From NCBI GenBank assembly GCA_029786595.1, contig JAFLXO010000004.1, positions 9,817 through 73,816 of the forward strand: a stretch of 64,000 nt of DNA, given 5' to 3'. The translations under genes were made by a program, and so were the position numbers. Of the stretch, positions 15,461-34,118 are shown piece after piece. The stretch's first letter is position 1. Every line of letters starts with the position of its first letter. A model generated the notes under the pieces. It worked only from the letters and a program-made list of their open reading frames with translations. It was not told where the DNA came from and did not search any database. The stretch comes from Nitrososphaerota archaeon (GTDB taxonomy: Archaea; Thermoproteota; Nitrososphaeria; Conexivisphaerales; UBA164).

Positions 15461-15479
15461 ATAGAAGCCCCGGGCGAGG
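15461..15479 (+). repeat. attL-like direct repeat (duplicated tRNA-Thr 3' fragment)
   Basis: atagaagccccgggcgagg here versus atagtagccccgggcgagg at 33304-33322, with one mismatch. Confidence 0.75.
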
Positions 15480-24646: not shown

Positions 24647-27028
24647 TTATTTGAATTGGAGAGATAGTTGTTTTAGTTTATCTTTAATTATTGCCCTCTC
24701 TTTATTTACCGCCTTAACCTCTGACGTTATCTGTGCTATTTCTTTCTCGGTCAGTTTAGGCACCTTGATTGTCATGTATTCATCGTCCGATATTGCTGGT
24801 AAAATTGTTCCTGAGGACTTCCATCGTACCTGATCTAACGTTGTCCTGAGCCTTAATATTACAAATAGAGCTTCTGCGGTCATAGGTGGTCTTGGTTTCA
24901 ATACCACAAAGCCAGATGAGACTATTGCGCCTTCGTATTCTTCTGGTATAATGGCTACATTCTCTTCGCTGTCCTTTACTTTTGCAGCTACTATGTCCCA
25001 TTTATTTACAAGCAACTTGGCTCTTGAAGGAGCTTCTTCTCCGAGCAAATCATAATGGCTTGTTATATCTCCAAGATTGCTCTCTATGTTGCTATACTGA
25101 ATATACTTTATAGCCTTTTTGGGTTCTTTCTTCGGATTGACTATTATTTTTGACTGAACTGCTATGTCCTTTATCTCACAACTTTCTTTCTTAAGTTCAA
25201 AAACGTATTTTGCATGGTAATACGTTGCATCTATTCTATCCTTTACCATATTTTTTCCTATGATGAAACAAGATGGTGTATTGTTCAAAATTTCCATAAC
25301 ATCTGTTTTGCCTTTTAGATTCTCAAAGAACTTGCTCGATTTGTACTCCTTATAGACACTGAGAATTTTAGGTAAGTCATTTTGATCTATTGGCTTTGCC
25401 TCTTTTGTTTTAGTCTCATAACCAACATAGTCGGCTACTGCCATAAATATTGGTTGCTGTTCTTCGTCTTCAGCAATCTTTTTCTTAATGAATAATAAGC
25501 TTGTTTTGCTGTTAGCACCAGACGCCTTGAACGCTCTGTCTGGAAGACTTATTACCGCCTTTATTACTGCCCTGCTTTTTATGAAGTCTCTTACGTAAGT
25601 TAAACGTTCATTGTTTAGTATGCCGTCTGGTAATAGAATAGCAAGCTCGCCACCAGCAGGTTTTAGGAACTTTAAGCACTTCTCAACGAACAGTATCTCT
25701 CGTAGTTGCTCTTTCATTACCTTTTTATCCACTTTACCTAAGTCAAATTGTTCTAAGATTTTACCATGATCCTTATTCCCAAAAGGCGGGTTTGTTATTA
25801 CTAAGTCAAATTTACCTTCAGTTATTTCGTTTATTCCCTCAAGACCGTTTGCTTTGTAAATTTTGCCATGTCCATCTCCATGCAATACCATATTCATTTT
25901 TGCTACCATGACCAACCTTTCGTTAATGTCAATACCGAATATTTGCTCCTTAGAAAGTCTTTCGAGAAGTTCTTTCTGTTTGCTCTCTGGTTGTCTTGCT
26001 ATCTTTTCCTGTATTGCCTTAAAAACCTCTATCAAAAATCCGCCAGAGCCGCAAGCAGGGTCTAATACGAGATATGGATCATTGCGGTTTGATACGGCAG
26101 AGTTAATCTCTGGATCTGCAAATTGAACAGCAAATCTGACTATTGTTCTTGGCGTAAAGAATTGTCCAAGTCCGCCTGTAAATGTTTTACCGAGAAATAT
26201 CTCAAAAGCACGACCTTTTACATCTATATTAGTTCTTATTAGTGTATATCTTTGAAGCAATTCTACGAGTTTTTCTATGCTTTCGTCTTGCAAATTTATG
26301 ACTTCATTGCCTGTGAATATGTCCTTGTTGTTGTCTCTTGCTTCTTTGAATAGGTAATTTCTGACGTATTTAGCACCACCATTAGCTTTTATGCTTTCTA
26401 TTGAGAAGGGGTTTGATTTGCCGTCTAATGCTAACTTCTCAAAATACATCTTACAAAATAAGATTTTACTTATTTCATCAAAAGCATCTGCACCTGTAAG
26501 ACCATCAACATCTCTTATAACGTCTTCGCATTTTAATAAAATTGATGAGAATTCTTTTATTCCTTCAAAAACGAGCAATGTCTTTCTTGCCTCTTCAAGT
26601 CTTTCTTCTGAAATAGTTTCTACAGCTTTGCCTATTTGTCTTGTTAAATTCTCTTTTGATAAAAATGTTGGTAATACAGATACTGGTTTATCCCAGATTA
26701 CTTTCTCTGTCTGCGTCTCGTAGACTTTAATTGTTAAGCCATTTGATAGAACCGAGTAAGGTGCCTTTAAGAGAAGTCCATAGGATATAATTTGCCTTTC
26801 GTAAAGGTTTAAATTTTCAGTTGGGTTTTTGCCATCAACAACAATTACAGAAACCCCATTTATGTTTATTACAATATCTGGATAAACGTATTTGCCTCTA
26901 CCTATTTCTATTGACTTTTGATGTTCTATTTCCCCTTTAACCTTTTCGCTATATCCGAGTTTTTCAAGGATGGGAATTATAATCTTTATGATAACATCCG
27001 TCTCTGAATTATCTTCAAAATTGGTCAT
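24647..27028 (-). CDS. Single-chain restriction-modification enzyme candidate (Type IIG/IIB-like): PD-(D/E)xK nuclease + N6-adenine methyltransferase + one TRD
   Basis: The N-terminal HSDR_N-like fold has YPDIVI...VIVVDGK...RQ (PD...DxK...Q). MTase motif I is VLDPACGSGGFLIE and motif IV is TNPPFGNKD. The C-terminal ~200 aa resemble a Type I S-subunit target-recognition domain ending in a coiled coil. Confidence 0.8.
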   Translation of the reverse strand: MTNFEDNSETDVIIKIIIPILEKLGYSEKVKGEIEHQKSIEIGRGKYVYPDIVININGVSVIVVDGKNPTENLNLYERQIISYGLLLKAPYSVLSNGLTIKVYETQTEKVIWDKPVSVLPTFLSKENLTRQIGKAVETISEERLEEARKTLLVFEGIKEFSSILLKCEDVIRDVDGLTGADAFDEISKILFCKMYFEKLALDGKSNPFSIESIKANGGAKYVRNYLFKEARDNNKDIFTGNEVINLQDESIEKLVELLQRYTLIRTNIDVKGRAFEIFLGKTFTGGLGQFFTPRTIVRFAVQFADPEINSAVSNRNDPYLVLDPACGSGGFLIEVFKAIQEKIARQPESKQKELLERLSKEQIFGIDINERLVMVAKMNMVLHGDGHGKIYKANGLEGINEITEGKFDLVITNPPFGNKDHGKILEQFDLGKVDKKVMKEQLREILFVEKCLKFLKPAGGELAILLPDGILNNERLTYVRDFIKSRAVIKAVISLPDRAFKASGANSKTSLLFIKKKIAEDEEQQPIFMAVADYVGYETKTKEAKPIDQNDLPKILSVYKEYKSSKFFENLKGKTDVMEILNNTPSCFIIGKNMVKDRIDATYYHAKYVFELKKESCEIKDIAVQSKIIVNPKKEPKKAIKYIQYSNIESNLGDITSHYDLLGEEAPSRAKLLVNKWDIVAAKVKDSEENVAIIPEEYEGAIVSSGFVVLKPRPPMTAEALFVILRLRTTLDQVRWKSSGTILPAISDDEYMTIKVPKLTEKEIAQITSEVKAVNKERAIIKDKLKQLSLQFK

Positions 27029-27372
27029 AAAATATCACCAATATTGCGTAAACTAAACGCTAACAGTTGCTGAACTAGCAAGCAAAGAAATAGCCGGCTG
27101 AATCTTGTATAGTGTCTAAGCCATAATACAATTTTAGTATCCATATTATTGAGATACAAGCTTGTATGCTTTACTATAAATCCATTCATGCCTTTACCCG
27201 CTTTAGCGATGTAATAAAGTGCTATTAAATTATGGGTTTTACCATCACCCAATGAAGTTTCAAGCTTGATTATAGGCGTAGAATCTGGGGCTTCGCCACT
27301 AAGCCTTCCAAACACTTCTTTCAACTGTTCTTTGCAGTCCCCCCCGAAGACTCTATCTACCCAATTGCCCAT
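27025..27372 (-). pseudogene. 5' fragment of a DUF499-like P-loop ATPase gene
   Basis: PIIKLETSLGDGKTHNLIALYYIAKAG resembles the N-terminal Walker A region of large (~1000 aa) DUF499 ATPases. Only about 70 plausible residues are followed by low-complexity sequence. The stop overlaps the RM start (ATGA). Confidence 0.4.
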
Positions 27373-27549
27373 ATAATCCGTAATTGCTTATTTGATTAAT
27401 AAGTATTTGCTGCAGGTGTTTCCATCTTTGCATCTATATTATGAGGGTCGGAGAGGTGGTTTTACCTGCGCGTTTGCGTAAGGGTTTGTCCATGCTCAGT
27501 CATCGCCCTCAGCGCGTAGTCCTCGTAACGCGCTGTCTATCTATATTAT

Positions 27550-28029
27550 ATGAAAGTAATCGTGAACCTGAAATTAAAGGTCGACACAACCTATTACGCA
27601 GGCAGGAGCATCTACAACAACCTCACGGGGGGCGTCTTTGAAGAGCCGGGGTGCCTTACCGAGCTTGAGAGCATAGTATGGCTGTCAAGGAACAGCCTGG
27701 AGCTGGATTTAAGAATACACCAATTAAAAATTCCCGACATAATGAAGGTGTATATAAGCCGGGAAGACCTCAGTCACTCTAACAAATTGACGGTGCTATA
27801 TCCCGAAATCGGCGTAAAACCGCTTGGCCCCCTGCCGGATAATATTATCGAATACATAGAGGCGCCACAGAACCCTACCCCTAAATCGAATCAGGTTATG
27901 AACGACTGGCGATTGCGAAAGTGGTTCGAAACCAAGGACCCGACCTATCTTGGCCTGCCGGCCCCAATCGATTATAATACAATGTTTAACATAAAAGAGG
28001 TAGACTGGTCGCACTTTAAGGGGATCTAA
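27550..28029 (+). CDS. Hypothetical protein
   Basis: 159-aa ORF in the GC-richer backbone, followed by a GC hairpin. No motif recognised. Confidence 0.45.
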   Translation: MKVIVNLKLKVDTTYYAGRSIYNNLTGGVFEEPGCLTELESIVWLSRNSLELDLRIHQLKIPDIMKVYISREDLSHSNKLTVLYPEIGVKPLGPLPDNIIEYIEAPQNPTPKSNQVMNDWRLRKWFETKDPTYLGLPAPIDYNTMFNIKEVDWSHFKGI

Positions 28030-28199
28030 ACAGTCAACCGGTAGGGGCGCACCCCTTAGAGTGGGGTATTTTAATCAATTAGATCATGATGTTTGGGAAG
28101 GAAAGAAAGCTAAAGAACGGCAGCTATTAACACGACAAAGTCAGCATGCCGCTAAAGTCCATACCGTCTATCTTTTCTACCTGCATATTATATAGATCG

Positions 28200-28570
28200 C
28201 CTGAGCGTTGCCAGAAATGGCAACGTTTTGTTGCCTTTTTGCGGTTTTTGCGTTACCATTTGCTATTTTTAGCCCTCCTGATGGGTTGGTTGTGGGGGGG
28301 CGTTTCATACCTGAGCATAAACAAATATGTTGACAATTTGTTAACTTTCAGCCATTTTTCCATCAGCATTCCTGTATTTCCTACCCCTCCTGTGCGGGGG
28401 CGGTTCGTAGCATACATCCTAAGCGGCACCATTTGTGGTGTCATTTTGACACCATTTTGAGGTTTTTATGGCACCATTTGCCAGTTTTAGCTCTTTCCCA
28501 AGATGGGTTTAGCGGGGGCGCTTCATAGATATTTTTTATCCCAAAAAAATCGCAAAAAAAGACGCTGGGT
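28200..28570. promoter_or_regulatory. Iteron-like repeat cluster, putative replication origin of the element
   Basis: Three copies of GGGGGCG(N)TTC(A/G)TA at 28294-28316, 28394-28419 and 28512-28533. Four to five copies of (G/T)(C/T)ACCATTT(T)G at 28253, 28433, 28449 and 28469. Palindrome gttgccagaaatggcaac at 28207-28224. An A/T tract at 28531-28560. The region lies upstream of the helicase operon. Confidence 0.5.
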
Positions 28571-28671
28571 GTTTAGTTTGGAAAATTTTGACTTTGCGCA
28601 TATCTATATAGTATGACCAAATACTGCGGTTCATTTGGCGACGCGGCATTATCCGCGGACGGAGTGGGAAA

Positions 28672-29214
28672 ATGAACGAGGAAGGCAGGGCCCCCCTGCA
28701 AGGGGGCCACAACGGAGAGGTAGCATCAACAAATAAAAGCACACATCTTTTCGAGCGCACCATCGATGATGGAACATACAAACTTCAGGTTTGCGTGAAT
28801 GCGTTGGGCCGTATTGTAGTTTCCATTAATGAAATTTCAATCACAGTCTTAGCTGAAGATGGCCTTGAAGCGGTATGGCATGAACTAATACTGGCTGGCG
28901 CCTTTGGCCCAGCGGTTCCAGAGCACGATCGCTTTCGAATCCTTAACAACATTTCATTTATGCATCGCGACGCGGTCACATGGCTTGCTGAGGCACAAAA
29001 ACGCACTCAAGCCAAGCATAACGATTCAAGGGTTCAAACGCTGGCCGACCTGTTCAAGGAGGAGAGCGAAAAAATGATAGGCAAGCCGGGGTCAGGAGCT
29101 GGACTAAACTTCAAAACAGAGTCAAAAATGGCAATATTTACAGAGGGTAGAAATTCCGCAGGAACCGCCGGAACCGCCGGAACCTGCGCGATGAAACAGG
29201 CAAGGGATAAATAA
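28672..29214 (+). CDS. Hypothetical protein (first gene of the helicase operon)
   Basis: Its stop overlaps the helicase ATG (TAATG). The C-terminus SAGTAGTAGT is encoded by the GGAACCGCC repeat. Confidence 0.45.
   Translation: MNEEGRAPLQGGHNGEVASTNKSTHLFERTIDDGTYKLQVCVNALGRIVVSINEISITVLAEDGLEAVWHELILAGAFGPAVPEHDRFRILNNISFMHRDAVTWLAEAQKRTQAKHNDSRVQTLADLFKEESEKMIGKPGSGAGLNFKTESKMAIFTEGRNSAGTAGTAGTCAMKQARDK
29143..29183. repeat. Left arm of perfect 41-bp inverted repeat
   Basis: gagggtagaaattccgcaggaaccgccggaaccgccggaac is the exact reverse complement of 30598-30638. Confidence 0.9.
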
Positions 29215-31007
29215 TGGTCGAAAATCAAACCGCCGGAACCTTGACGCCAACCATGGATACCCTACCGAACGAGGTCGCTGATGCTCTCCTTGTCACCATG
29301 CACGTCCTTACCCTTCGTGATACCAAGGAGATGCTTGTCTACCGTGATGGAGTATATGAAGAGTACGGGGAGCAGGTCATAGAGCAGCTGGTTTTGAATA
29401 CGTTCAAGCACGCCCGCATAGCACAGAAGCTCAACCGGAATTACATGAACGAAGTGCTGGCCCACGTGCGCTGGGGCTCATATACGGACAGGAAGGAATT
29501 TGACAATGACGAGAATATAATCCATCTTGCGAACGGGCTTCTGGACATCAGGACAGGGAAGGTGTCGCCCGAAACACCGGATTACTATTCAAGGATCAAA
29601 CTTCCAGTGTTTTACGATCCTGAGGCGAAGGCGCCGGCATTCGAGAAGGCGCTGGCTGAGATACTGCCGGATGAGAAGGCAAGGCTGGACGTTATGGAGG
29701 AATTTGCGGCCGTCCTCTGGCGCACGGCGAAGCTCCAGAAAGCCTTCCTATGGGTTGGGAATGGCCGCAACGGGAAGTCAACGCTCTTATACGTTCTCCA
29801 GTCATTGATAGGGGCGAAGAACTTTTCAAGCATAGCCATACAGGACTTGCAGGTTAGTCGTTTCAAGCCGGCCGAGCTTGATGGGAAACTTGCCAATATC
29901 TATAGCGATATATCGGCGACAGAAATCCATGCCACCGGGATTATCAAGTCCATAATCAGTGGTGATGCGATAACAGTTGAAAAGAAGAACCGCGACCCCT
30001 TCACATTCCATCCGTTCTCAAAGCTGTTCTACTCAGCGAACCAAGTGCCGGAGGTGCTGGACTCATCGGATGCATGGTTCCGCAGGTGGAAGATCACCGA
30101 ATTCACGCAGGAGTTCGAAAAGGACAAGTGCGATCCCGACCTTCCGGCCAAGCTAACGAGCCCGCAGGAATTATCAGGCATCCTTAACCTTGTCATTGCC
30201 ACCCTGAAAGACCTGATAGCGAGGGGGAAGTTTGCCCATGAAGATGATATCGATCTTATAAGAGAGAGTTGGCTGCTAAAAGCTGACCACCTGCGCAGGT
30301 TCATTGATGCCGAACTTGAGCTTGAGCCGGGTGTTGACACGTCAAGGCAGAAGGTGTATGACGCCTATACGAAATGGTGTTATGAGAACGGCGTGGTTAA
30401 CGTCTACAGCCAGCAAAAGTTCAACAGTGAGTTCATAAAAAAGATACCGGTCAGCCAGTCTTCCCCAAAACCGGGAGGCAAAGGTACCAATTCGGTGTAT
30501 AGCTGGAGGGGGGTGAAGTTCAAGGAAGGTTCCGGCGGTTCCGGCGGTTCGACAAAAGTCGATGCCGGACAAAAAACCATCAATGAAACGGAAAATAGTT
30601 CCGGCGGTTCCGGCGGTTCCTGCGGAATTTCTACCCTCCCAAAAAATGGCCATTTTGACGATCTTGTCAGTGAACTGACCAAACGGGACGGCAAGATTTA
30701 TGTCAAGTGTAAGGATCATAGGGTTGACAGCGACGGTCACGAGCGTTGGTTCTGCAAGGACGACGGGGAGTGGGAGATGCACCTGCAAAGACAGCATGGC
30801 TTAGAGACGAAGGCGGAAGCTGTGCTGGACATATTCAGGAAGCTCTGCGGCCCGGAGAATAAGGAGGTCACGGTGCAGGAGGTCATGGCCGAGCTGAAGA
30901 AGGCAGGCATAGAGGAGCCCGAGGGGGCCACGCTGATTGCGTCGCTGCAGAATAACGGGCAGATATATGAAAGGAGCCCCGGCAGGTTCAGCCTTACCAT
31001 ATCATGA
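29214..31007 (+). CDS. D5/P4-type SF3 replicative helicase (phage/plasmid primase P4-family C-terminal domain) with C-terminal winged-helix
   Basis: D5_N-like region (IIHLANGLLDIRTG...PETPDYY), Walker A VGNGRNGKST, Walker-B-like KLANIYSD, then WFRRWKIT. A Gly/Ser linker and a Cys/His-rich segment follow, then a wH-like tail. Confidence 0.85.
   Translation: MVENQTAGTLTPTMDTLPNEVADALLVTMHVLTLRDTKEMLVYRDGVYEEYGEQVIEQLVLNTFKHARIAQKLNRNYMNEVLAHVRWGSYTDRKEFDNDENIIHLANGLLDIRTGKVSPETPDYYSRIKLPVFYDPEAKAPAFEKALAEILPDEKARLDVMEEFAAVLWRTAKLQKAFLWVGNGRNGKSTLLYVLQSLIGAKNFSSIAIQDLQVSRFKPAELDGKLANIYSDISATEIHATGIIKSIISGDAITVEKKNRDPFTFHPFSKLFYSANQVPEVLDSSDAWFRRWKITEFTQEFEKDKCDPDLPAKLTSPQELSGILNLVIATLKDLIARGKFAHEDDIDLIRESWLLKADHLRRFIDAELELEPGVDTSRQKVYDAYTKWCYENGVVNVYSQQKFNSEFIKKIPVSQSSPKPGGKGTNSVYSWRGVKFKEGSGGSGGSTKVDAGQKTINETENSSGGSGGSCGISTLPKNGHFDDLVSELTKRDGKIYVKCKDHRVDSDGHERWFCKDDGEWEMHLQRQHGLETKAEAVLDIFRKLCGPENKEVTVQEVMAELKKAGIEEPEGATLIASLQNNGQIYERSPGRFSLTIS
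30598..30638. repeat. Right arm of perfect 41-bp inverted repeat
   Basis: gttccggcggttccggcggttcctgcggaatttctaccctc. Weaker similarity continues for about 22 bp beyond both arms. Confidence 0.9.
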
Positions 31008-31057
31008 AGAGATAGATGGAATATGAAACAAGCGATAGTTAAACTTAAGGCGCCGGC

Positions 31058-31324
31058 GTGGGAAAATCATATCCGGAACGCCGGATATCAGCACGGATTC
31101 AGGAGAATTATCCCAAAGGTGGTCAAGCCATGACCAGTTATCAGCTCCGAATCGTAAAGAGGGAATGGGATCCGGCGAGGAAGGCCAAGGCCTCTCATTC
31201 ATTAATCACAAAGCCGCTCTCTGAGGCGCAGGCCAGGCAGCTGGTTGAATTGTTTAAGTCATCAGAGTTGTTCAAGTCCGCAGCGCTTATTGAAGCAGAA
31301 GTCAAGGAGGGCCGGATGGCATGA
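31058..31324 (+). CDS. Hypothetical small protein
   Basis: ORF only. The likelier start is the internal MTSYQLRIVK. Confidence 0.35.
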   Translation: MGKSYPERRISARIQENYPKGGQAMTSYQLRIVKREWDPARKAKASHSLITKPLSEAQARQLVELFKSSELFKSAALIEAEVKEGRMA

Positions 31325-31983
31325 TCGCCGAACACTTATTACGTCAACGGGACACAATTCCCCAAGGCATCAGGGCAAAGACGCAATACCTTGTATTCAG
31401 GCACCGGTTCAATAATCCAGGGGACAGCCTTGAAGACGTGGCAAAGGCGCTTGGCCTGAGCTACTGGACGGTGGCCAAGTCATGGTCAAGGCTCAGGCGT
31501 TCAAGGAACCTGGCCAGGCTGTGCCCGGTATGCTTCCATGAAACGCTCTACAATTCCCTGTGCCAGAGCTGCGGGGCCGACTTCCGGGAAGATGAAACAG
31601 GGGGCGTTGAAATGGCTGACATGGACCAGCACAGCCCGGTCTATCGGATCCAGCCTAACGGCGGCCTTGGGGGAGAGCCCCAATACAGCGGCCTAAGGCT
31701 CCAGAACCGGCCCACATATATCCGCCATTTAGTGGAACAGCAGGGAGGAGACGAAGGGAGGATCCAGGAAATACTTGAGCTGATATGGGAGGAGCTCAAG
31801 GCAACCATGCCTAGGGATGACGTGGGGGAGCTGGCCGCCAGGACCGCAAGGAAGGAGTATTACCGGATGAAGCGGGATTACCCGGACCTGATGAGCAAGA
31901 AGGGGTTCAAGGAAGCCGTAGCCGGGAAGGTCGTAAGGGAGCTGAGGACCATCTATAGAATAGGCAATGGAGGTGAGCGGTAG
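31321..31983 (+). CDS. Putative regulator: HTH plus zinc ribbon
   Basis: LEDVAKALGLSYWTVAKSWSRLRR is HTH-like, followed by CPVCFHETLYNSLCQSCG (CxxC...CxxC). Confidence 0.5.
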   Translation: MIAEHLLRQRDTIPQGIRAKTQYLVFRHRFNNPGDSLEDVAKALGLSYWTVAKSWSRLRRSRNLARLCPVCFHETLYNSLCQSCGADFREDETGGVEMADMDQHSPVYRIQPNGGLGGEPQYSGLRLQNRPTYIRHLVEQQGGDEGRIQEILELIWEELKATMPRDDVGELAARTARKEYYRMKRDYPDLMSKKGFKEAVAGKVVRELRTIYRIGNGGER

Positions 31984-32066
31984 GATGAACGACAGCGATA
32001 AGGAGGCCGAATACGTCAAGGTGCCCAAGTCAAAGATAGTTGAAATGATAGAGGAAGTAAGGCGGC

Positions 32067-33305
32067 TCAGGGAACTGTCTCGTGACCAGAAGCAAGAAGG
32101 GCGTTAAGCTGCTCTTCAAGCTTCGCCAGCCTTTCCTCATACTCGTTCCTTATTCTTGTTTCAGTCTCGAGCGCCTTCCCGCTTGCCGGGTTGAGCCATG
32201 GCCGGGCGATCTTCATGTATTCCTTCCTGTAGTGCTCGGGATCGTTCCACGGGGACTTGTCATACTTCAGCTTGTCTATCGAGTGGCCCAGAAAGAAGTT
32301 GGCAGCCGTCATGTCGGCCCCAACGTGTTTTGCCATCGTTATCAGGGTATCCCTGCATTCGTGAGAATGAAATGCATACTGGATATGGGCTCCCTTAAAC
32401 TTTTCGAGCTTGACCGACGGATCCCTTATGTTTATCTTGGCACGCCTGCCAGCCATGAGGAATATCGAGGTCACCTGCTTGGCGCTCATGGGATGGCCGA
32501 ACTTGTCAATGAAGATGGGGTCCGAATGAGGGAGCTCTCCCGGGTTGCCTGGATAAACCTTCAGGTCCCTTCCCTTCAGGTATTCAGCTATGGTCTCAAC
32601 GGCATCAATGTCCAGGAAGGTATAGTACCTGTAATCCGACTTTGGCCTTACCAGGTCAATCCTTATCGGGCACGCAGTTTGACATTTTGACACATCATTT
32701 AACACGCCCGAATTTAATAGCTGGGGATATCCAACTAAGTTGAAGACGTCCGTGAGCGTAGAGGCGTCCATGCCCGACTGAAGCATTGCCAGGATAACGG
32801 CCCTGTCCCTCACCGACACCTTCCCGTAATGAAGAGCCGTGTTGATATATTCAAGGAAATCATGGGCCGTGATTTCTCGCCTTATCGTATGGTGGTTCCC
32901 GTTCCTTACAACTGGCCGGACGTGGGGGAGCTCCACGAAGTTATGAAGATAGAATGACCTTATGGTGGCCATCTCCCTCCTGATTGTCTCCTTGTTCTCG
33001 GATGGATATTCCTGGCAGTATTCAAGCAGCCTGCTAACATGATCGACCAGGACCCTGTTATTCCCGTTCAAACACTCATCGATCAGCCTGTCCGGGTCCG
33101 CCTCGAAGCCCCTTGATTTCAGCCATCTCACGTAGCGGCCCAGTGCGTAGACGTTGCCCTTCCTGTAGCCGCCGCTCCTGAGAGCATTAAGCCATTTCCT
33201 AACGCTCTCCCTTTCAATCAGTGGTTCTAGGTCGTCATAGACCTTTGAAATTCCGCCCGGCCCCCTGCTCATGCTATTAAAAAGGTGAGGTTCGAACTTA
33301 TCCAT
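32067..33305 (-). CDS. int: Tyrosine recombinase / integrase
   Basis: C-terminal catalytic pattern: AFHSHECRDTLIT (HxxR), FLGHS, then KLKYDKS (Tyr). The start codon lies inside the att core, and the gene abuts tRNA-Thr. Confidence 0.85.
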   Translation of the reverse strand: MDKFEPHLFNSMSRGPGGISKVYDDLEPLIERESVRKWLNALRSGGYRKGNVYALGRYVRWLKSRGFEADPDRLIDECLNGNNRVLVDHVSRLLEYCQEYPSENKETIRREMATIRSFYLHNFVELPHVRPVVRNGNHHTIRREITAHDFLEYINTALHYGKVSVRDRAVILAMLQSGMDASTLTDVFNLVGYPQLLNSGVLNDVSKCQTACPIRIDLVRPKSDYRYYTFLDIDAVETIAEYLKGRDLKVYPGNPGELPHSDPIFIDKFGHPMSAKQVTSIFLMAGRRAKINIRDPSVKLEKFKGAHIQYAFHSHECRDTLITMAKHVGADMTAANFFLGHSIDKLKYDKSPWNDPEHYRKEYMKIARPWLNPASGKALETETRIRNEYEERLAKLEEQLNALLASGHETVP

Positions 33306-33322
33306 AGTAGCCCCGGGCGAGG
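33304..33322 (+). repeat. attR-like direct repeat overlapping the tRNA-Thr 3' end
   Basis: atagtagccccgggcgagg. Positions 33309-33322 are the discriminator, the acceptor 3' strand and the T-stem 3' strand plus one T-loop base of the tRNA. Confidence 0.75.
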
Positions 33323-33382
33323 TTTGAACTCGCGGCCCACAGCTTACAAGGCTATTGCTCTACCAGGCTGAGCTACCGGGGC
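33309..33382 (-). tRNA. tRNA-Thr(UGU): tRNA-Thr (anticodon UGU)
   Basis: Hand-folded cloverleaf of the reverse complement: GCCCCGG-TA-GCTC-AGCCTGGTA-GAGC-A-ATAGC-CTTGTAA-GCTGT-GGGCC-GCGAG-TTCAAAC-CTCGC-CCGGGGC-T. All stems pair. It is 74 nt with no encoded CCA. Confidence 0.9.
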
Positions 33383-33715
33383 ATTTTTGACAAGGCTTTC
33401 ATCAACTAGATATTTAAATATTTGATTGAACTCTTCGTCATGTAAAACGAATAGCTCATATGATTTATCTTCCATAGCCCTTTTTACGGCTTGTATATGT
33501 ACACATTCTCCGATTGACCCTTTTATCACTCCATCATAATGGCTATAACAGGTACAACTATTGCCGTTGACTAAGTAATCGGACCCTTTTCCTACAACCA
33601 CCATGAGGTTATTGCCGGATGGGGAGAATAAGAGCTTCTTTACAGATTGTTCGTATTGCCTGTGTTTATGTTTCAACGGTACCCACCTTAAAGGCGGAGA
33701 TAGGGAACTCCTCAT
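33344..33715 (-). CDS. SWIM zinc-finger protein
   Basis: NGNSCTCYSHYDGVIKGSIGECVHIQAVKRA gives CxC...CxH, the SWIM pattern. The 3' end reads 39 nt into the tRNA-Thr gene, and the start overlaps the upstream gene, so exact ends are uncertain. Confidence 0.6.
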   Translation of the reverse strand: MRSSLSPPLRWVPLKHKHRQYEQSVKKLLFSPSGNNLMVVVGKGSDYLVNGNSCTCYSHYDGVIKGSIGECVHIQAVKRAMEDKSYELFVLHDEEFNQIFKYLVDESLVKNAPVAQPGRAIAL

Positions 33716-34118
33716 TTATTATGAAATATAAACCATCTCCCGCAATTTCATATTTCCTGAAAAATCTATCTGACCCCTTGCCGAAGGAAATCAACTTCTT
33801 CTCGACGCCTTTGTGCTCAGACTTGATAATGCCGCCTAGGGGTATACATCGGTTTTTGACTTTTGCAAGTACGGAGGAAGAGCATACCTTTTTCATTATC
33901 TTTGTATCGGCATAACAGACCACCGTCCCATCAGGCTTGATTAGCGTCGATGTCCTGGCTATAGATTCATCGTTCTCCTCCTGCCTTAGCACTATGACCT
34001 TAATCTCTTCATTAAAGAAAGCTGATAGAAGTAGCTGGTTTGTGCCATCGTTGAACAATATCATCCTTTCCACGGGTTCCAGAATTTTTGCCCCAGACCT
34101 ATTTCCTGTGGGAATCAT
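33666..34118 (-). CDS. Hypothetical protein (possibly chorismate-lyase/UTRA-fold, DUF98-like)
   Basis: 150-aa ORF whose start overlaps the rpiA stop by 4 nt. The fold guess rests only on a weak resemblance (IPLGGIIKSEHKGVEKKLISF). Confidence 0.35.
   Translation of the reverse strand: MIPTGNRSGAKILEPVERMILFNDGTNQLLLSAFFNEEIKVIVLRQEENDESIARTSTLIKPDGTVVCYADTKIMKKVCSSSVLAKVKNRCIPLGGIIKSEHKGVEKKLISFGKGSDRFFRKYEIAGDGLYFIINEEFPISAFKVGTVET

Follow-up and report, generated by a model that had tools for sequence, protein, structure and literature searches.

We analysed a stretch of 64,000 nucleotides of DNA from a Nitrososphaerota archaeon (the window), in which the gene of a superfamily 3 (SF3) helicase is bracketed by a long inverted repeat and by opposed clusters of a 9-bp unit. 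Positions 29143-29183 are the exact reverse complement of 30598-30638, 41 nt without a mismatch, and the ungapped inverted repeat reaches 29125-29183 and 30598-30656 (59 nt, 92%). An earlier note on this DNA, made from the sequence alone, had described the perfect 41-bp repeat exactly, with weaker similarity on its flanks; the opposed 9-mer clusters that it reported, two on the left and two on the right, were borne out as well, with spans refined to 29225-29242 and 30526-30552. The outer-left cluster (29161-29184) consists of 2.7 tandem GGAACCGCC units and the partial inner-left cluster, TCAAACCGCCGGAACCTT, of ~1.5 units; units in the reverse form, GGCGGTTCC, lie at 30526-30552 and 30598-30620. 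The nesting of these clusters is almost symmetric, with spacers of 41 and 45 nt. When GGAACCGCCGGAACC was searched with at most 2 mismatches, we observed 7 matches in the 64 kb, every one at the helicase locus (0.09 expected), and none of 100 shuffles attained 7 matches; the exact 9-mer gave 5 matches against 0.45 expected. The features of the locus, all on the forward strand, are the following.

28672-29214: upstream open reading frame (ORF) of 180 aa, whose last ~30 codons traverse the left arm; it ends ...SAGTAGTAGTCAMKQARDK
29085-29114: highly conserved block GGAGCTGGAYTAAACTTCAAAASAGAG, mean pairwise identity 0.89 among six elements with different backbones
29125-29183: outer-left arm, with an A/T-rich imperfect palindrome (29125-29141), the 18 nt GAGGGTAGAAATTCCGCA and the 2.7 GGAACCGCC units
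29185-29224: left spacer, 57% A+T, with a Shine-Dalgarno-like AGGGA and the helicase ATG (29214)
29214-31007: helicase gene, 597 aa, holding the linkers EGSGGSGGS and SSGGSGGS
29225-29242: inner-left cluster TCAAACCGCCGGAACCTT, coding NQTAGT within the helicase's disordered N-terminal tail
29427-29666: D5_N domain (aa 72-151; Pfam, 1.6e-10)
29754-30086: SF3 ATPase/DUF5906 domain (aa 181-291; Pfam, 3.3e-21)
30282-30524: RFX-type winged helix/Pox_D5 (Pfam Pox_D5 at aa 357-414, and a weak RFX_DNA_binding match)
30462-30464: Ser417 codon (start of the wing hairpin)
30526-30552: inner-right cluster, GGTTCCGGC twice and then GGTTCGA, coding linker 1, EGSGGSGGS
30537-30650: disordered repeat-encoded linker (AlphaFold model)
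30553-30597: A-rich right spacer (A+T 62%, element 49%), coding TKVDAGQKTINETEN
30598-30656: outer-right arm, with 2.7 GGCGGTTCC units that code linker 2 (SSGGSGGS), an 18-nt segment and the palindrome AAAATGGCCATTTT (30643-30656); the arm codes CGISTLPKNGHF
about 30651-31004: zinc-finger-like module and second winged helix

The units are translated at the end of the upstream ORF (...SAGTAGTAGT...) and in the helicase, where they code aa 4-9 and 439-471; the ORF translations agree with the earlier note in giving SAGTAGTAGT for the former and Gly/Ser linkers for the latter. Only the final ~130 nt of the upstream ORF fall within the module common to related elements, and a Pfam search of this ORF (ORF180) and of ORF88, ORF220 and ORF159 gave no match. 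The block 29085-29114 might possibly be the promoter region of the helicase module. The perfect palindrome AAAATGGCCATTTT closes the right arm on its outer side and has its imperfect counterpart in the left arm (29125-29141); it is kept in relatives, and a model based on the 9-mers leaves it unexplained.

Profile searches matched the helicase to PriRep of the staphylococcal pathogenicity island (SaPI) SaPI5 (7e-59), and its winged helix to RFX5 (5e-9) and RFX1 (9e-4). The top Foldseek matches were 7OLA and 7OM0, 7OLA being SaPI5 PriRep, the closest solved structure. The AlphaFold 2 (AF2) model has a mean predicted local distance difference test score (pLDDT) of 86.8 and shows the winged helix with high confidence (helices 378-391 and 400-410, hairpin 414-436). 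Its sole disordered segments (pLDDT <50), residues 1-7 and 442-479, correspond to the stretches that the repeats and the right spacer encode. Conservation of the protein stops at ~aa 437, and distant homologues end there or carry unrelated tails, which indicates that the arms bracket the whole ancestral gene. The inner-right cluster begins immediately past the conserved WRGVKFK that ends the ancestral helicase, the right-hand clusters start 2 nt past the last conserved codon, and the fusion point of the C-terminal extension coincides exactly with the repeats. The earlier note had placed the arms around a helicase core; D5_N and the SF3 ATPase do lie between them, but what is bracketed is the whole ancestral helicase, including its winged helix.

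No primase or Prim-Pol domain was detected by Pfam in the 597-aa ORF or in the neighbouring ORFs, and PF09250 is present in many distant relatives of the helicase. Pfam and PDB searches found no lambda O-like domain in the protein, an SF3 helicase being seen instead, and no second helicase copy was found within the window. In the window and in the related elements L001 and L005 the helicase continues into the C-terminal winged helix, but in L002 (7612-7830) and L004 (7518-7742) that position behind the helicase is taken by a separate ORF of 72-74 aa. Ahead of this winged helix there is a Cys/His-rich module (KCKDH...FCKDDGEWEMHLQRQH), which is zinc-finger-like and has no family match.

Conservation and concerted variation among related elements

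The close relatives compared were L001, L002 (the same as L003), L004, L005 and L085, six elements including the window, to which L193-L195 were added later. The five further elements are independent and come from separate assemblies, and their helicases are 75-81% identical. All four clusters keep their position and orientation in the six elements, two on the left and two, opposed, on the right; a chance or one-off duplication is ruled out by these five further elements with the identical layout, and comparison of homologues, which the earlier note had proposed, located the conservation at the level of the DNA, and the homologues do carry the repeat, whose absence from them the note had counted towards a refutation. 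The module was found on at least two unrelated backbones, namely an integrase element of ~6 kb and a larger one of 38-47 kb that has Hjc- and ParE-like genes. The small elements (window, L001, L004) encode a tyrosine integrase outside the common module; in the L002-type elements none lies near the module. Similarity among the elements is confined to ~29030-30810 in window coordinates, that is, to the arms, the helicase and the zinc-finger-like module, and its left boundary in the six elements is at about 29030-29085. No inverted repeat of at least 12 nt brackets the helicase in ~185 distant loci outside the close clade; the bracketing arrangement is thus clade-specific. An exact 33-nt arm search of genome contigs gave no match.

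Each of the six elements carries one unit variant throughout.

GGAACCGCC: window, L001, L085/L193
GGAACCGGC: L002, L005
GGAACTGGC: L004

The comparison of L002 with L085 shows this concerted variation at close range, as they are 97.2% identical over ~2.1 kb, with ~55 substitutions. Ten of these are one recurring G/C transversion at repeat positions, four on the left (29159, 29168, 29177 and 29233) and six on the right (30535, 30544, 30604, 30613, 30622 and a unit-like position adjoining the outer-right array), which corresponds to 9 unit copies and 1 adjoining position. The inter-cluster spacers of the two elements are identical, and the core between the arms is 98-99% identical. The variant changes are non-synonymous (linkers GGS, AGS or ASS; tail NQTAGT or NQTGGT), and since concerted unit changes alter linker residues, the constraint acts on the DNA and not on the protein. 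In the L002 type, 1-nt indels shift the frame of the upstream ORF past the array and the DNA is still conserved; because the frame differs there, the conservation past the left array is also at the DNA level. The variants on the left and on the right are complementary in 6 of the 8 full loci.

Complementarity of the arms is most extended in the window. Exact inverted matches in the other elements reach no more than 22-34 nt, with ~80-84% similarity of the arms over 60 nt; in the L002 type complementarity is restricted to the 9-mers (29 nt). The left arm of the window holds the right-arm version of the 18-nt segment (the GAGGGTAG-AATTCCGC type), and two window-specific bases are common to both arms. 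These shared features are the signature of a recent right-to-left gene-conversion tract, to which the 41-bp perfection is due. The earlier note had argued that 41 perfect bp imply either recent gene conversion or selection at the DNA level, and both find support, the former in this tract and the latter in the concerted non-synonymous variants.

We observed that residue 417 is the only helicase position outside the repeats that follows the unit variant in the six elements: serine is paired with CGCC, tyrosine with CGGC and glutamine with CTGGC. This residue is part of the sequence PVSQSxPKPGGKG, where the wing hairpin begins (in the AF2 model, strands 414-416 and 430-436), and corresponds to Arg58 in an alignment with the RFX1 DNA-binding domain. 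In RFX-type winged helices, it is the wing and not the recognition helix that reads the major groove (PMC2533330, PMC4333399). Further members of the protein cluster prolong the pattern, and the metagenome-assembled genome (MAG) JRN37 holds three elements with three combinations of variant and residue 417 (S, Y and Q; proteins P0002, P0124 and P0136). In the distant 'DTFFKNLP' subgroup (L023-L067), wings of the form R(V/I)VTFKG pair with TGTCAA, and wings of the form (Y/L/F)H(T/S)(F/L)KG with TGTCCA/TGGACA. The MAG of the window itself, JRN32, has a second, mosaic module on another contig (P0121, P0127).

9-bp arrays in the helicase family

The family was surveyed in 153 distant loci with at most 48% identity, among the loci L006-L192, in a region of 430 nt (-80 to +350) at the end of the ancestral helicase, by counting exact 6-mer matches at a given period. 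Period 9 gave 606 matches in this region, against 71 and 102 for periods 8 and 10, 32 for period 9 in a region of the same size inside the gene, and 75 for period 9 in the 430 nt upstream of the gene (104 loci). Arrays of at least two units are present in 61 of the 153 loci (MAGs of archaea and of bacteria, and viral contigs); they begin ahead of the in-frame stop in 39 of the 61, and 37 have the core in both orientations, typically as two or three units, a spacer of 60-110 nt and an inverted pair. The motifs are lineage-specific, TGTCAA being the commonest. Units with a GGTTC core were found in 3 of the 153 loci only; the core is therefore ruled out as a general motif of the family, and what is general is the 9-bp period.

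The outgroups show the same arrays in different relations to the reading frame. In L011 (40% identity), convergent GGTTCCG units lie wholly inside the ORF (EGSDGSEGSEG ... GSEPSEPSEL), and in L197 convergent GGTTCTAC units lie in a coding linker (GSTGSTSS ... KLVERVEH). The units of L198 straddle the stop codon, and arrays occupy non-coding positions past it in L198, L059 and L186. Many array-bearing distant relatives end just past the helicase winged helix, without a C-terminal extension. On the loci compared, 9-bp arrays immediately after the helicase winged helix are a family trait, of which the units in the window are the version of this clade.

Surroundings of the element

The helicase is located in a small, GC-richer island beside a tyrosine integrase and a tRNA-Thr.

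32067-33305, reverse strand: tyrosine integrase (PF00589), the integrase of the small element that carries the module
33309-33382, reverse strand: tRNA-Thr (TGT), adjoining the integrase

These neighbours, together with an identical helicase protein annotated in the Nitrososphaerota MAG JRN32, indicate an integrated archaeal mobile element, and the tRNA-Thr is likely its integration target. The search for attachment sites of the element yielded no convincing ones, just one stretch at 15461-15479 in which 18 of 19 nt match the tRNA-Thr 3' end. This match covers the tRNA 3' end plus 5 nt (33304-33322) in equal orientation, and as a distal attachment site it could make 15.4-33.3 kb a composite island. 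Immediately to the left of the element, a low-GC stretch (33-38%) encodes a 793-aa N6-adenine methyltransferase with an HsdR_N-like N-terminus (24647-27028, reverse strand), probably a separately acquired restriction-modification island. Upstream of ORF180, the non-coding-looking stretch 28212-28530 contains three copies of GCGGGGGCGNTTCRTAG, 100 and 118 nt apart, and several CCATTTTGAGGTTTTT-like copies. Rfam, run in E-value mode on 27000-34000, matched only the tRNA. No transposase lies between the arms, where the helicase is the only gene.

Interpretation and comparison with known systems

We consider it probable that the 9-bp units serve as iterons to which the RFX-type winged helix of the helicase itself binds, and that they form a replication origin, control sites or both. 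Among the options raised in the earlier note, binding sites for an initiator or regulator are the one that we favour, because of the family-wide arrays, the concerted switching of units, the covariation of the wing residue and the precedents of SaPI, P4 and lambda. The repeats, their conservation and concerted variation, the arrays of the family, the disordered linker and the fold of the winged helix are observations; binding by that winged helix, function as origin or operator, and incompatibility as the driver are inferred. The earlier note had also mentioned a cruciform or a secondary origin; the origin part overlaps with the iteron interpretation, but a cruciform with a 1.4-kb loop is implausible.

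In the scheme that we propose, the winged helix that ends the ancestral SF3 (D5/P4-family) helicase would bind the 9-bp units. In the wider family, the coding region of the winged helix is directly followed by two or three units and usually, beyond a spacer of 60-110 nt, by inverted ones, as in the SaPI origin. In the clade of the window this arrangement is split, with two same-direction clusters at the 3' end of the ancestral gene and the two inverted clusters placed just upstream of and across the start codon, the gene being bracketed as P4 alpha is by ori and crr. The left clusters may double as an operator for autoregulation. As the unit reads GGS, AGS or ASS one way, it would tolerate fusion of the helicase to the downstream zinc-finger/winged-helix ORF, and the repeats would now code disordered linkers, much as the lambda ori is embedded in gene O. 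One variant with one matching wing residue per element would prevent cross-reaction between co-resident elements. Gene conversion among the clusters would homogenise the units, and in the window it would recently have stretched the identity to 41 bp.

Several points weigh against this interpretation. Both right-hand clusters of the window clade run in the same direction, the compact layout of facing iterons known from SaPIs is missing, and the spacers are just moderately A+T-rich (57-62%). For pRN1, whose helicase belongs to a related class, it was not possible to demonstrate that Rep binds the downstream origin specifically (PMC4234260). The C-terminal zinc-finger/winged-helix extension or a host factor could also be the binder. 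Furthermore, the codon of residue 417 is only ~60-70 nt upstream of the inner-right cluster (30526) and is included in a substitution-dense patch of L085 (30422-30492), and it is possible that this residue hitch-hikes with the inner-right cluster in one recombination tract. The covariation rests on about three independent transitions, and the mosaics L194, L195, P0122, P0126 and P0129 show mixed variants or a mismatched residue 417. A more specific form of the proposal must be regarded as possible but rather unlikely; according to it, the specificity of the origin/operator iterons would be reset by residue 417 (S/Y/Q) together with a gene-converted base change, giving incompatibility groups of archaeal elements, and the same repeats would serve as crossover points for cointegrates or cassette swaps (as in L193) and as linker codons for the capture of modules.

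The inversion substrate suggested in the earlier note would be a switch in which the arms flip the 1.4-kb helicase core, yielding either the full-length protein or a truncated one without the zinc-finger/winged-helix tail; the flipped form of the window would terminate ...CGISTLCKYCHF-stop. The length and perfection of the inverted repeat, the right-arm-type sequence in the left arm of the window, which indicates that the arms exchange sequence, and the tyrosine integrase of the small elements would all fit such a switch. So would P0133, the helicase of L193, in which the right arm is joined to an inverted left arm: it ends ...GSGGISIPHKHCLFGHFYCLSFEV, a right-arm translation running into a reverse-complemented L001-type left arm, and the arm sequence in common is followed by 20 more codons (60 nt), the next one being the stop. 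BLASTN, however, placed this junction between two different elements (contig DAHWOJ010000025.1, 9379-9441): the sequence is 98.95% identical to L085 up to the arm, and from there 99.6% identical to the left flank of L001 in reverse, with the crossover inside ~35 shared nt. P0133 was accordingly dropped as a product of in-place inversion, and L193 would represent either a cointegrate, a chromosomal rearrangement between elements or a misassembly. The right arm is read forward in the proteins of ~17 relatives, P0133 being the exception, and an in-place flipped form is seen in none of these ~17 clade proteins and in none of 9 DNA loci. Moreover, beyond the 9-mers the arms match poorly in the other elements, the shared module has no recombinase, the L002-type backbones have no nearby integrase, and the 3'-end arrays of distant relatives have nothing to invert. 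The arms are clearly recombinogenic, as indicated by the gene conversion, the mosaics and the L193 junction, but a programmed switch is not supported, and we regard it as very improbable. If instead both arms lie in one transcript, they could pair over 1.4 kb, outer with outer and inner with inner, leaving the ribosome-binding site and the start codon in an internal loop and controlling translation or processing of the helicase mRNA. The nested, near-symmetric geometry agrees with this, as does the left/right complementarity kept in most of the full loci, and the Shine-Dalgarno-like motif and ATG in the left spacer suggest that the left arm is transcribed. Pairing, however, needs no identity among the units of an arm or between inner and outer clusters, the complementarity in the L002 type is limited to the 9-mers, and distant arrays sit past the stop codon or as local convergent pairs. 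Rfam had no match at the arms and no compensatory changes were found outside the units; an RNA element seems very improbable.

There is a small chance that the repeats have no function at the DNA level and are a slippage-prone, linker-coding 9-bp repeat, ancestrally copied upstream in inverted form and kept uniform by recombination or gene conversion with co-resident elements. Gene conversion is evident in the 41-bp identity of the window and in the mosaics L194 and L195, the repeats code disordered linkers of small residues in both reading directions, and residue 417 could hitch-hike with the adjacent cluster. This would nevertheless leave unexplained the arrays with lineage-specific motifs in 61 of the 153 distant loci, some of them non-coding. 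The left and right sets, 1.3 kb apart, are switched jointly around a nearly identical core, the layout persists on different backbones, and repeats of exactly this kind are the origins of the nearest helicases that have been characterised (PMC9371898; P4 record). A comparably low probability is given to another binder, either the zinc-finger-like and winged-helix extension, which some relatives have as an ORF of its own, or a host factor, in which case the repeats would be a regulatory or partition site and not an origin. The zinc-finger module belongs to the shared module (conservation to ~30810), the fusion point falls exactly at the repeats, and the palindrome AAAATGGCCATTTT and the 18-nt segment beside the arrays are conserved and unexplained. 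But no residue of the zinc-finger region tracks the variants, many array-bearing distant relatives lack the extension, and in SaPI and P4 it is the winged helix of the helicase itself to which iteron binding is ascribed.

The iteron interpretation is of interest because few replication origins of archaeal mobile elements are known, and elements of Nitrososphaerota have so far been beyond genetic handling. If it is true, the origin of the module and the specificity of its initiator can be read from the sequence alone, and the locus is a natural case of one stretch of DNA serving both as a protein-binding array and as linker codons. The 9-bp-period rule (61 of 153 distant loci) is a simple possible predictor of origins beside P4/D5-family helicases. 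The pair of elements that are 97% identical with every site switched offers a natural test of a change in initiator-origin specificity.

Among known systems, invertons resemble the window in that inverted repeats surround a coding segment and in that the encoded C-terminus would change upon a flip; they differ in that the window has no in-place flipped form or associated invertase that we could find, and its units are explained by the family-wide arrays. Unlike a transposable element with terminal inverted repeats, the window has no transposase between the repeats. The archaeal pRN1, whose ORF904 combines primase, SF3 helicase and winged helix, has its origin mapped directly 3' of the helicase gene and involving an inverted repeat (PMC4234260). 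It shares with the window the archaeal mobile element and the repeat region 3' of the helicase gene, but its origin is a local stem-loop of 100 nt without recognised iterons. In lambdoid phages the ori occupies a central position within gene O, where additional iterons make the O protein longer (PMC7466680). As in lambda, the repeats of the window are inside the ORF of the presumed initiator, in segments that the model predicts to be disordered and that are taken to be dispensable for folding, and would be bound by it. In contrast, O is unrelated to SF3 helicases, and lambda has a single cluster of 19-bp iterons with an AT-rich tract and no inverted partner across the gene.

The bracketing of the gene is closest to that of P4, whose alpha protein is also a D5_N/SF3 helicase and whose two separated repeat regions lie on either side of its gene. 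In the P4 record, 8-bp type-1 repeats are found in crr, 46 nt past the alpha stop, and in the upstream ori, mostly in opposite orientation between the two, with some pairs 9 bp apart. The ori of P4 lies 2.1 kb upstream with other genes in between, the P4 8-mers are non-coding and alpha has a primase domain, whereas the sets of the window are tight against the gene, are located in coding DNA and have ~60 nt of similar flanking sequence. In SaPIs, Rep is a self-loading SF3 helicase whose C-terminal winged helix recognises short iterons directly downstream of rep, on either side of an AT-rich region, and the repeat sequence is element-specific (PMC9371898). The window is like them in its SF3 helicase, its C-terminal winged helix and its short repeats straight after the helicase coding region, and the SaPI layout of repeats, spacer and inverted repeats is seen in distant relatives of its helicase (L011, L197, 37 of 61 loci). 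It is unlike them in being archaeal, in its 9-bp period, in repeats that are translated as linkers, in an ORF without a primase domain, and in downstream clusters that are co-directional, with their inverted partners 1.3-1.4 kb away, upstream of the gene. Overall, the arms are most likely not an invertible switch, and the locus is most likely a new arrangement of a known type of origin.

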